A stretch of DNA of 64,000 bases from a virus (lineage: Duplodnaviria > Caudoviricetes), in the IMG/VR virus record IMGVR_UViG_3300037312_000804, positions 206 through 64,205 of that record; one strand, written 5' to 3'. Every line of letters starts with the position of its first letter. The first letter of the stretch is position 1. The translations under genes were made by a program, and so were the position numbers. This document shows positions 125-3,100 of this stretch, piece after piece. Under the pieces are notes generated by a model. It saw only the letters and a program-made list of their open reading frames with translations. It was not told where the DNA came from and searched no databases.

Positions 125-3100
125 GGGCAGTCTCCTTGATGGGCTTCATGCTGACAATGGCTTCGATGGTTGTGTCGCCTCGCATGCGTGCTGCGGTGAT
201 GCGGTGGCCACCGTCCAGGATGTTCAGTTTGCCGGTGCGGGGCGACAACACGGCGATCACTGGCGGCACATCGTCGGCAGAACGGTCGCGGTATTCCTCG
301 GCGCGTGCGCGATTGACCGTGCCGTCGTACAGGTCACCGTTCTCGTTGTCCTTGAACATGGACAGCGGCACCGCACCCATGCGCAGCACGGAGCGGTTGC
401 CTTCACCTGCGTCAATCTGACGCACAGGGTCGACGCCGCCGGGCTTCTCCGTTTTTCCGCTGACTATCGCGCGCGCGTCGTCGTGGCTGATCAACTTGGT
501 GATGGATTCGACTCTCGCTCGCGGATTGGTCAGTGCAGGCTGGGCGTCGGCGGCGCCATCTGCACCAGTTCGATGATCGCCAGCGTCATCGCCGCGCTGC
601 GCGGCAGTTCCACCGCTTCCTGGTCGTTCGCCTTCGACAATTCCAGTTCCAGTTCCTGCACGTCCTGCGGCGTGATCACTTCCCACTTCAACAGCAGGTC
701 CGCCGCTTCGTCCGCGTCCATCAGTTTCTCGTTCAGTTCCAGCATTATCGATTCCATCGCGCGCCCCTTCGATCGGTTGAATGCGGAACTTGCCTTCGCT
801 GCCCACCACTTCATGCGGCTGGCCGGTTTCCTCGGCGTAGCGCTGCATCATGCGGTTGGCGGCCTTCATGTCTTCGAACGGTCCGGTGGACAGCGGCTCG
901 ACGGCGGGCTTGCTATCGGCCATGGCCTGCTTGCCGCGCGCGGCGATTTCTTTTTCGATCTGCTTGCGCTCGGCCATCAGCGCCTTGCGCTGTTCCGGCT
1001 GCTGCTGCGCGCGGCCGGCGACATCCTTCAGCGCTGCGCGCAGGTCTTCCAGCGGCATCGCCGTATAGTCGGGCGCGGCGGGCGGCATCTCAGGTGCGGG
1101 CGCCGGATCGGCTTCGTGCTGGTCGGCCGCCTGTTCGATGGCGGCGCTCATCGGGCCAGCATCGGCCGGCGTCGGCGCGGCGGCCGCGTGCACGACGGCA
1201 CCCTCCAGCGGGCCGGATGGCTGATCGATGGGGCGGATGGCGCGCAACTGGTCGGCTACGGATGAACCGACTGGCGCCGGGGCGGCTTCTGGCGCGACAG
1301 GATCTTGGGGCGGCATGTCGTCCAGCGTCGGCTCGATGCGCGGCTGCGCGCCTGGCGCGGCTGCTTCCGGCTGCGCCAGCGCGGCGCGCGCGCTGTGCGT
1401 TGCCTCGGACATGACACCCATGCCGGCGCCGCCCAGCCCGCCCTTGAGCGCGGAATCGATCACGTTGTCCAGCAATTCTGGCGTGAACAGCTTCTTGCCG
1501 CTGGCCTGCGTCTTGCCCGCCTCTTCGATGATCGTCTGCAGGCCCTCGGTGCCGGCTTCGGCAATGAACTGCTTGCCGGCCTCCACGCCCAGGCGCTTGA
1601 TGATGCCGCCCGCCACCTCGTCGACGACCGGCCCGGCGATCTTGCGCAGCGCGAGCACGGGTTCCAGCGTGTCCAGCAGACCGGCCGGGATGCCGTAGCC
1701 CAGCGCGATGCCGGGGCGCTTCTGGCCCGTCTCCTGGTAGATGTCGCCACCGATGGAGCCCGTCTCCATGCCGATGGTCGCGGGCGCTGCGCCGGCCGCG
1801 CTGCCCATCATCACGCGCTTTGCGATGAACTGCGCGGCGTTGCGCTCGGCGACGTCGCGGGCGATGCCCTTGGCCACCTGCGATTCGATCATGCCGCCCA
1901 CCAGCCGCTGCGCGCCGACCTTGGCCGCCTGCGCACCGATGCCACCGGTGGCGAGCGACGGCAGGATCATCGGCAGGTTCTCCATCACGGCCTCGATCGT
2001 GTAGCGGCCGACGTCGCCCATGTCGCGGATGTTCTTGTAGCTGCCGATCGTGGCCGGGTTGTTCTTGGCGACGTCGTTCTGGATCGCCACGTACTGGTCC
2101 AGCAGGCGCGTCGCCTCGTCTTCCTTGCCGGCGGCTTCGGCCGCCATGCCAGCGGCGCCGTAGCCCAGCGCGCGCAGGTTGTCGATGCCGCGGCCGAAGT
2201 CGCCGCGCGCCTGGTCGACGATGCCGGGGCGGTGCTTGGTGCCGGTTTCCGGGAATGCGACGGGCTGCTCGCGCGCGGGCAACTGCGGCACGACGCCATC
2301 CTGCTCGCCTTGAAGTTTCGCATTCAGGCGCTGATCGAAGAATTCCTCAGGCGTCGGGATCTTCTTCATCGGGCCGGCGGCGCGCTGGTCGGTCTTGGCC
2401 TTGAGGCGTGCGGCGGCCTGCTGGTCGTACTGCGCCATCGCGTTCTGCACGGCGGCGTCGTTCGCCTTCGGGTTCAGCGCGCGGAACTCCTTCTCGTAGT
2501 CGGCGCGCGCCATGCGGTTCGGTGCGAACTGGTTTTGCTCGGCGCCGGGCGTGAACGCGGGCGGCGCTTCCGGCGCGGCGGCCGTGTCGCCATAAAGCTG
2601 CTGGCCGATCTGCCCGGCCTTGGCCAGCACCTCCTGCCCGTATGCCGCCGTCTTCTCGCCCCACAGTTTGCGGTCCGGCCCGGCGAAGTGCTCCTTCACG
2701 GCATCGGCCATGTCGTAGCCCTTGTCCAGGCGCTCGCGCAGTTGCATGGCGATGGCGGGAACTGCCTCGTTCGGGTCGCGCGCGTTGATGCCCAGGCTCT
2801 TCGCCGTAGCGTCCAGGTACTGGCCGATCCCGGCCGCGCTGGTTTCCCTGTTGGTGGCGTCCGCGTTGTAGCTGGATTCCTGCTGCGCGATGGCCATCAG
2901 GACGTTCACGGGCACCTTGAAATGCGCGGCCGTCGCTTCGAACAGCGGACGCATCGACTCGGGCGGCAACAGGCTGGCGGGCGGCGCCGAGCGCGCGGCG
3001 GGCGCTGGCTTCGGCGCGGGCGCGGCCGCGCTCACATCGGGCATCTCGACGTCAGGCACCGGATCGCTGCCGGGCAGCGGCGCCGGCTGCTGGTCGATCA

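Follow-up and report, generated by a model that had tools for sequence, protein, structure and literature searches.

Two probable small genes nested in the +1 frame of a Bcep22-like virion-protein gene from an uncultured phage

Introduction

Two described phage systems come closest to the arrangement reported here. In the lambda-type spanin genes, with Rz1 in Rz, a complete small gene lies wholly inside a larger phage gene on the same strand, in its +1 frame and on one mRNA, and this embedded class is also found in Bcep22-like phages (PMC9144972). The second is the HNH endonuclease gene hidden out of frame in the ShiLan-type DNA methylase gene of mycobacteriophages (Arsenault, Gosselin & Gogarten 2025, PMC11855218), where the host frame is free of stops and no intron or intein can be detected. 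We analyzed a stretch of 64,000 nucleotides (nt) from a tailed phage (Caudoviricetes; IMG/VR record IMGVR_UViG_3300037312_000804, positions 206 to 64,205), hereafter the window, in which a giant gene contains two short open reading frames (ORFs), named B and D, in its +1 frame; we refer to this gene as the host gene and to its own reading as frame 0. B is probably a genuine gene of 75 amino acids (aa) with its own start site inside a Bcep22-like virion-protein gene, and D, which starts at position 124, is probably another of the same kind (Table 1).

In layout, B is like Rz1: it has its own start and stop inside the host ORF, a conserved ribosome-binding site, and selection on the nested frame with the host frame kept. 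However, Rz1 is a lipoprotein that pairs with Rz, while B has neither a cysteine nor a hydrophobic N-terminal segment, and so no lipobox or signal peptide of the Rz1 type, and no evidence ties its function to the host protein. Furthermore, the host reading at this locus is a spacer without sequence constraint of its own, and two nested genes alternate with frame-0 modules. With the ShiLan-type HNH gene, B and D share the out-of-frame position, the stop-free host frame and the lack of a detectable intron or intein, but they are not endonucleases and occupy one and the same linker in every relative, as resident rather than homing genes; the polymorphic piece at this locus is a frame-0 module resembling ParB. 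The polymerase spacer of hepatitis B virus, which overlaps preS/S, offers another likeness, since there too one frame encodes a folded, constrained protein and the other a dispensable, fast-evolving spacer between domains, although this is an animal virus with another genome logic and an overlap that extends over much of the genome.

An initial reading of the window made from its letters alone (the sequence-only reading) knew of no description of such hidden genes. This holds in part: the out-of-frame HNH gene was published in 2025 (PMC11855218), while we found no paper on non-mobile polyvalent-protein linker genes of the kind of B and D, and the founding paper on polyvalent proteins mentions neither nested nor overlapping genes. 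The principle is therefore already known, and what is new here are two nested gene families, an unusually clear alternation of frames, and evidence of selection for both readings.

Coding signals of gene B

The sequence-only reading had described a host frame that stays open from 3140 to 1 and switches over 757-530 to A/T-ending codons and a low-information linker of G, D, A, T and R, and, in the +1 frame, an SD-like (Shine-Dalgarno) site, an ATG, a stop and 75 codons that end in G or C except for GAA, one AAA and one ATA. Every one of these elements proved to be exact. The host ORF does not end at the edge of the window but goes on to 63718. Its G+C content at third codon positions (GC3) is 0.83-0.90 upstream of B, falls to 0.21-0.41 over approximately 790-550, and recovers to 0.76-0.90 in the ParB-like part, while the GC3 of the +1 frame across the same dip is 0.80-0.90. 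The only A/T-ending codons of B are GAA (ten times), ATA and AAA (once each), and no codon ends in T, whereas 52 of the 77 codons of the frame-0 reading over B end in A or T, and the residues that they encode are mostly Gly (19), Ala (13), Asp (9), Thr (7) and Arg (7). The SD-like element in front of B pairs with the anti-SD sequence at -7.1 kcal/mol, within the top 3.3% of positions in giant ORFs.

The product was expected to be helical and acidic, and it is predicted to be both, with 16 Asp and Glu against 4 Lys and Arg, an isoelectric point (pI) of 4.05, and three helices in an AlphaFold2 model built from a seven-sequence alignment (mean predicted local distance difference test score, pLDDT, of 82, and 88-95 in the core). 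As a baseline for the registers, we used windows of 76 codons in 39 well-coded ORFs of this genome. The +1 register of these real genes is stop-free over such a length in only 8.8% of windows, and chance alone does not account for the clean, well-coded +1 frame at this position. By the codon-usage criterion of Pavesi et al. (PMC3744397), B and D come out as the primary readings, and the spacer is secondary.

Conservation of gene B among relatives

The DNA of relatives was retrieved from Logan, JGI and ENA assemblies (L002-L005 and L009-L012) and from IMG/VR, which contains a complete contig of 61.6 kb (L008). These were compared with the present record (L001) and with the Ralstonia phages Eline (L006) and GP4 (L007; NC_054964.1). 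Full-length B was available from seven lineages, all of them uncultured: the window itself (WIN), L002, L003/4/5, L008, L009, L010 and L011. An eighth, L012, is a contig of 568 nt that keeps the ATG of B, the SD, the open host frame and the first 45 residues of B, followed by unrelated sequence, and it was left out of the codon analyses as possibly chimeric.

The identity of B among the seven full-length lineages ranges from 46 to 92%. All seven share the ATG (ATGGAATC..) and the aligned position of the stop codon (TGA in six and TAA in L011), and the indels within B are whole codons. The SD motif in front of the ATG varies by lineage (GAAGGGG, GAGGTG, GGAGGG, AAGGAGGT, GGAGG or GAGG), always at a spacing of 5-8 nt, and its pairing strength falls within the top 0.1-9% of giant-ORF positions in 8/8 lineages. 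In each of the eight, the host frame likewise runs through B to the ends of the contig without a stop. B and D are found together at the same place in 7/7 complete lineages, without presence/absence polymorphism. Hence, the relatives show neither conservation of the long frame alone nor a nested frame broken by stops and deprived of its SD. A sequencing error behind the frame change was also considered and excluded, because the same layout is common to independent assemblies (IMG/VR, JGI, Logan and ENA).

In protein searches, the homologues of B are free-standing calls of 70-75 aa, and when 1.84 billion representatives were scanned with a profile, B did not turn up as a domain of any longer protein; the single long match (P0009, 1477 aa) covers only profile positions 29-62, in seven stretches. 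Among the relatives, none carries a free-standing B outside a host frame. A tblastn search of 50,697 phage records gave no match to B in cultured phages at E ≤ 0.01, nor to D at E ≤ 1. Pattern scans of genome and metagenome contigs with the B alignment yielded no confirmed relative, and the scan of viral contigs found none with the B sequence alone and only L008 with the alignment.

Constraint on the two frames

The distribution of changes between codon positions separates the two frames. Among the seven full-length lineages, at least 69, 51 and 75 changes are needed at positions 1, 2 and 3 of the B codons, equivalent to 75, 69 and 51 at positions 1, 2 and 3 of the host frame. Immediately before B, over 29 codons, the corresponding host-frame counts follow the usual pattern (19, 23 and 33). 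The constraint thus switches frame at the boundary of B, because the third position of the host frame is the least variable within B and the most variable upstream. Moreover, the amino acid identity of B exceeds that of the host-frame reading in 21/21 pairs. Naive NG86 estimates of the ratio of nonsynonymous to synonymous substitution rates (dN/dS), a comparison that the sequence-only reading had proposed, range from 0.5 to 1.2 for B and from 1.3 to 3.5 for the host frame; their absolute size deserves little weight, because such estimates are biased by overlaps and by third positions that alternate between G and C, but the direction of the difference is consistent. The proposal that the nested frame is the one under selection is borne out by these patterns, together with the retained SD, ATG and stop.

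Could B nevertheless be the relic of a fusion, a formerly separate gene that is no longer translated, whose DNA now serves only as a spacer while its signals decay? Codon usage makes the B frame the older one, as would be expected of a relic, its naive dN/dS is not far below 1, and L012 contains only the first 45 residues. In Eline and GP4, a +1 ORF at the same position, with the same Leu-His-stop end, looks degenerate and is missed by the B profile. However, the ATG, the stop position and a strong SD persist at 46-56% identity even though the sequence of the SD itself changes, and the whole-codon indels, the better conservation of B in every pair, the constrained third position of the host frame and the confidently predicted fold all run counter to decay. 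We therefore regard a relic as improbable. For B and D alike, the aligned codons show protein-level constraint in the nested frame, with a host frame that is uninterrupted and in register across both.

A second probable nested gene downstream of B

The sequence-only reading had noted the same +1 geometry at position 124, and this was confirmed as gene D, whose last ten codons and stop lie within the 78 nt outside the window. D follows B in 7/7 lineages. Its SD pairs at -8.5 kcal/mol (top 1.1%). The product is very basic (pI 12), with a Cys2 and without a signal peptide; its 22 N-terminal residues are nearly invariant (MCPNARKFQKKRRLRAERKARN), and the tail is variable. In several lineages, CGC and AGG are exchanged for each other, as are CTG and TTG, so that the Arg and Leu residues of D are kept and the host-frame residues are altered, which is a clear sign of selection on the frame of D.

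The giant host gene

The window corresponds to the 64,205-bp record minus 78 nt, and the record ends in a terminal repeat of 127 bp, which makes the genome effectively circular. Read around the circle from 3140 to 63718, the host ORF amounts to 1166 codons, and its N terminus can be aligned with the start of the giant ORF of L008. The C-terminal part of the module upstream of B shows 36% identity over 117 aa to coding sequences (CDSs) annotated as DarB-like antirestriction proteins in Ralstonia phages such as Eline and GP4. These phages go with the Bcep22-like podoviruses, whose DarB-like protein of ~4,500 aa is found in virions, the homologous giant protein being a virion component in phage JC1 (PMC9144972). 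The annotated homologous genes have 3,200-4,500 codons. In the present phage, the giant gene appears to be divided, and other large ORFs exist (e.g., 59798-55377).

With a lytic transglycosylase (SLT) domain, a module shared with DarB-like proteins, and variable modules swapped in frame among relatives, the host gene fits the polyvalent, DarB-like type. A Pfam search of the first 1046 residues found only SLT families and no DarB methyltransferase-helicase core, and B follows the N-terminal part with the SLT domain instead of preceding a methylase core. The order along the gene is the upstream module (frame 0), B (+1), the ParB-like module (frame 0), D (+1) and the C-terminal module (frame 0). 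The constant neighbors of B are D and, on the upstream side, the conserved module end (..PHEVVGSEGKFRIQPIEG), and the C-terminal module (..FMKKVKVDHDVYI..CMKG, then the stop) is conserved and common to L002 and L004. We take B and D to be resident genes nested in a virion-protein gene of several modules, in which +1 genes alternate with frame-0 modules.

Table 1. Features of the host gene and of nested reading frames. Positions are those of the window unless preceded by the handle of another sequence.
Feature	Position	Strand	Description
Host gene, first part	1..3140	-	First 1046 of 1166 codons of a virion or ejection protein gene; GTG start at 3140; runs off the window start
Host ORF, last part	63718..64000	-	Stop codon ends at 63718; the 78 nt between window positions 1 and 64000 lie outside
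SLT lytic transglycosylase domain	2721..2945	-	Host residues 66-140; Pfam PF01464, E 6.3e-9
SD-like element of B	764..770	-	GAAGGGG, 6 nt before the B ATG; frame 0 reads ..E G A..
Gene B (probable)	530..757	-	+1 frame; ATG at 757, 75 codons, TGA at 532-530; 8.4-kDa acidic product
Spacer over B	528..758	-	Frame 0; 77 residues, rich in G, A, D, T and R (DGIDNAG...AQPALT)
ParB-like module	136..526	-	Frame 0; inserted in frame between B and D; found in this phage alone
SD of D	132..137	-	AAGGAG, 7 nt before the D ATG
Gene D (probable)	1..124 (whole gene, L001:174-329)	-	+1 frame; ATG at 124, 51 codons
Third candidate	58889..59029	-	+1 ORF of 43-47 codons; GAGGA SD before the ATG at 59017; in the 1473-codon ORF 59798-55377
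HNH gene of L008	L008:4515-4967	+	phrog_3377, E 1e-44; 150 codons, +1 frame of a giant ORF of >2,700 codons, 33 nt upstream of B
HNH gene of GP4	L007:7064-7618	+	phrog_3377, E 8e-56; inside KMC52_gp68; 184 codons, +1 frame; AAAGGAGAAA SD
107-codon ORF of Eline and GP4	L006:8054-8377 (Eline); L007:8378-8701 (GP4)	+	+1 frame; CAGGAGG SD; over a low-GC3 linker of the DarB-like CDS
59-codon ORF of Eline and GP4	L006 and L007, ~6340-6520	+	+1 frame (MEQMIAALN..PPLSRLH, then the stop); linker equivalent to that of B; host GC3 0.38-0.47

Probable translation of the host frame across B and D

Four lines of evidence indicate that the host frame is translated across B and D. The upstream module has no stop before B in 8/8 lineages, and therefore ribosomes that translate it have to continue past its end. 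From the stop of B to the ATG of D, the spacers measure 405, 18, 27, 186, 15, 354 and 9 nt, all seven of them multiples of 3, which favors a translated host frame because free-standing genes need no such spacing. The modules that vary from lineage to lineage (the ParB-like one in this phage, a different one in L008 and L010, and further ones behind D in L002 and L004) are all in register and stopless. Finally, given the B protein and the codon usage of the genome, an open host frame has a probability of 0.27-0.50 per lineage and ~0.006 over five roughly independent groups, a joint figure that assumes more independence at synonymous sites than is proven.

The ParB-like module is absent from L002, L003/L004, L009 and L011, where D comes directly after B, and its place is taken by a different module in L008 and L010. 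In contigs of runs X2, X5 and X6, position 135 is joined to 527 with 7 or 13 letters between them, a net difference of 384 or 378 nt. The ParB-like module has no convincing start and no stop of its own. A DGGHR motif is visible in its sequence, but matches to ParB-like partition proteins in PHROGs are weak (E 0.0047 and 0.02), and Pfam gives nothing at E ≤ 1. The sequence-only reading had suggested that B might be a partner of this domain, as its immunity protein, inhibitor or chaperone. Such a partnership is unsupported, because the module is confined to this phage, B is conserved without it, and the ParB assignment is itself weak.

Several points weigh against the picture of two translated genes within a translated host frame. 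The phage is uncultured, and B, D and the spacer are known from sequence alone, in only about seven lineages, some of which are close to each other. No usable family or fold for B was found in Pfam, PHROGs, the ESM Atlas or Foldseek (PDB and BFVD), and neither B nor D could be matched to a family, a fold or a published description. The dN/dS of B is not low in absolute terms, and to this is added the independence assumed in the joint probability above. Contigs from RNA libraries (runs X5 and X6, from a close relative) extend from the end of the upstream module across B and D, and may reflect DNA carry-over. A soil or rhizosphere origin may be considered, although outside the probable source run it depends on small word shares. 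Finally, the host frame stands in the -1 register of B, and this register is free of stops in 61% of the 76-codon windows, so that an open host frame over B is by itself weak evidence. Of the coding argument in the sequence-only reading, one half thus stands, since a clean +1 gene is unusual, and the other is weak, since the openness of the host frame over B is unremarkable.

Elsewhere in the window, at 61419-63401 on the minus strand, two overlapping frames are open over 611 and 660 codons, and over 63158-62919 the 660-codon frame (63401-61419) has a GC3 of 0.87-0.97, against 0.48-0.62 for the 611-codon frame. It follows that the -1 register easily stays open in this genome.

This ease raises the question of whether there is a giant protein at all, or whether the modules, B and D are separate genes of an operon and the long frame is open only through the GC-rich -1 register, which can run beyond 600 codons nearby. 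Gene callers split B, D and the downstream piece off the contigs of relatives, and the gap of 9-27 nt between B and D in several of them is operon-like. Yet separate genes would account neither for an upstream module that is stopless in every lineage nor for frame-0 modules that keep one register with B-D spacers always divisible by 3, nor for a ParB-like insertion that is in frame and lacks convincing termini. In addition, the nested HNH genes described below avoid host-frame stops beyond synonymous permutation, and homologues of 3,200-4,500 codons are annotated, one of whose products was found in virions. Consequently, an operon of separate genes is quite improbable.

Expression and origin of the nested genes

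If B and D are expressed from within a translated host gene, ribosomes on the host gene would read both in the -1 register. Third positions in the genome are ~85-90% G/C, with T in 6.7% of codons (none in B), and therefore a -1 reading almost never meets TAA, TAG or TGA. Its codons would begin with G or C and encode Gly, Ala, Asp, Glu, Val, Arg, Pro, Gln, His and Leu; the spacer that it yields is rich in Gly, Ala, Asp, Glu, Arg, Pro and Thr. The resulting hydrophilic, low-complexity peptide may act as a disordered link between modules. Other ribosomes would start at the internal SD sites of the same late mRNA to produce B and D. A promoter scan of window positions 1-1500 found no sigma-70-like site upstream of B, which makes translation from internal starts on the late host-gene mRNA the most likely route to both products. 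As for their origin, B and D may have been separate genes that became bridged by read-through, or genes that landed in a tolerant linker.

In prfB, an SD-like element just upstream of the shift site stimulates +1 frameshifting. The conserved element in front of B could be read in the same manner, with a programmed +1 shift near 760 giving a shorter protein that carries B as its C-terminal domain and no free B, and the rare A/T-ending codons of the spacer could slow the ribosomes there. However, no slippery or hungry codon is present, let alone conserved; the codons preceding the ATG are CGC, GGC, AGC, AAC or GCA, which do not allow re-pairing. An invariant ATG at 5-8 nt from the SD suits initiation, and in L008 an HNH gene parts the upstream module from B, and yet B retains both SD and ATG. 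For these reasons, frameshifting is very unlikely. That B and D belong to a self-splicing intron or intein-like mobile insertion removed from the host mRNA or protein, which the HNH homing endonuclease genes beside B in L008 and elsewhere in the GP4 gene might suggest, is extremely unlikely, given that no Rfam family, group I and II introns included, matched L001 or L008 at E ≤ 1, that an intron requires neither an open host frame nor spacers in multiples of 3, that neither B nor D is present in some relatives and absent from others, and that no intein or nuclease domain is detected in either frame.

Other nested reading frames in giant phage genes

Further +1 ORFs were found in the giant genes of relatives. 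The HNH gene of L008 lies over a host frame that remains open, which is so in only 3.7% of synonymous permutations (P 0.037), and the host frame is equally open over the HNH gene of GP4 (P 0.021). The latter is unannotated, RefSeq having only the giant DarB-like CDS there, and is absent from Eline. Both are further examples of the ShiLan type. The 107-codon ORF shared by Eline and GP4 is unannotated as well; its product is natural-looking and helical (MTPKQIRHALELAM..), without a match in Pfam or PHROGs. Together with D, these three bear out the suggestion of the sequence-only reading that small genes are housed in the linkers of giant genes.

The same reading had seen the +1 geometry recur at 59017. 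The GC3 of the host frame dips to 0.38-0.41 over this third candidate, and the ORF, both its ATGs and the stop position are common to L002, but neither frame is clearly better conserved. The 59-codon ORF of Eline and GP4 is Arg-rich and degenerate-looking, and ends at the same junction as B (Leu-His-stop in +1, PALT in frame 0); the B profile did not match the genomes of Eline and GP4, and the ORF is thus not callable as a B homologue. It could be a decayed B or unrelated to it.

The junction ..CTG CAC TGA, read as LH-stop in the +1 frame and as (P)ALT in frame 0, ends B in all lineages and recurs in several nested ORFs, among them a second +1 ORF after B in L010 (345-491, plus strand). Recombination may have joined sequences there, or the giant protein may be processed at this site, but the recurrence may also be due to chance.

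Possible functions of B and D

The three-helix model of B gave a best Z of 4.4 in a wide VIA-align search, which corresponds to a generic helical arrangement. Neither B nor D has a match to HNH or other nucleases in Pfam or PHROGs. None of the seven members of the B family matched TnpV (PF14198) at E ≤ 10, with HMMER filters dropping most matches above 0.1. A co-fold of B with D scored 0.01, and such a low score is evidence neither way.

With low confidence, we infer that B and D are late accessory proteins that would act with the injected protein cargo. B might be a small acidic inhibitor or a counter-defense protein of the DNA-mimic type, or else a helper in the assembly of the giant protein, although we hold this set of roles to be doubtful. 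The conserved part of D presumably resembles arginine-rich RNA-binding motifs, and our guess would be that D is a nucleic-acid-binding peptide of the arginine-rich-motif kind.

Significance

A broader picture, which we offer tentatively, is that the linkers of giant injected proteins in GC-rich phages may be resident genes read in the -1 register, to which modules were added by bridging them or by insertion beside them. In that picture, B and D would be undescribed companions of the cargo, acting for example in counter-defense or packaging, that annotation has missed. B, D and the other nested genes are missing from public annotation because gene finders forbid a gene inside a gene.

If such nested genes are translated, phage proteomes would be incomplete exactly where anti-defense cargo is encoded, and the linkers of polyvalent proteins would be dual-coding DNA and not neutral spacers. 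The engineering or knockout of giant genes would then also hit the hidden ones. A high GC3 makes such gene-in-gene layouts cheap, considering that the -1 register is nearly stop-free, and the locus may provide a clean natural system for how two reading frames share constraint.

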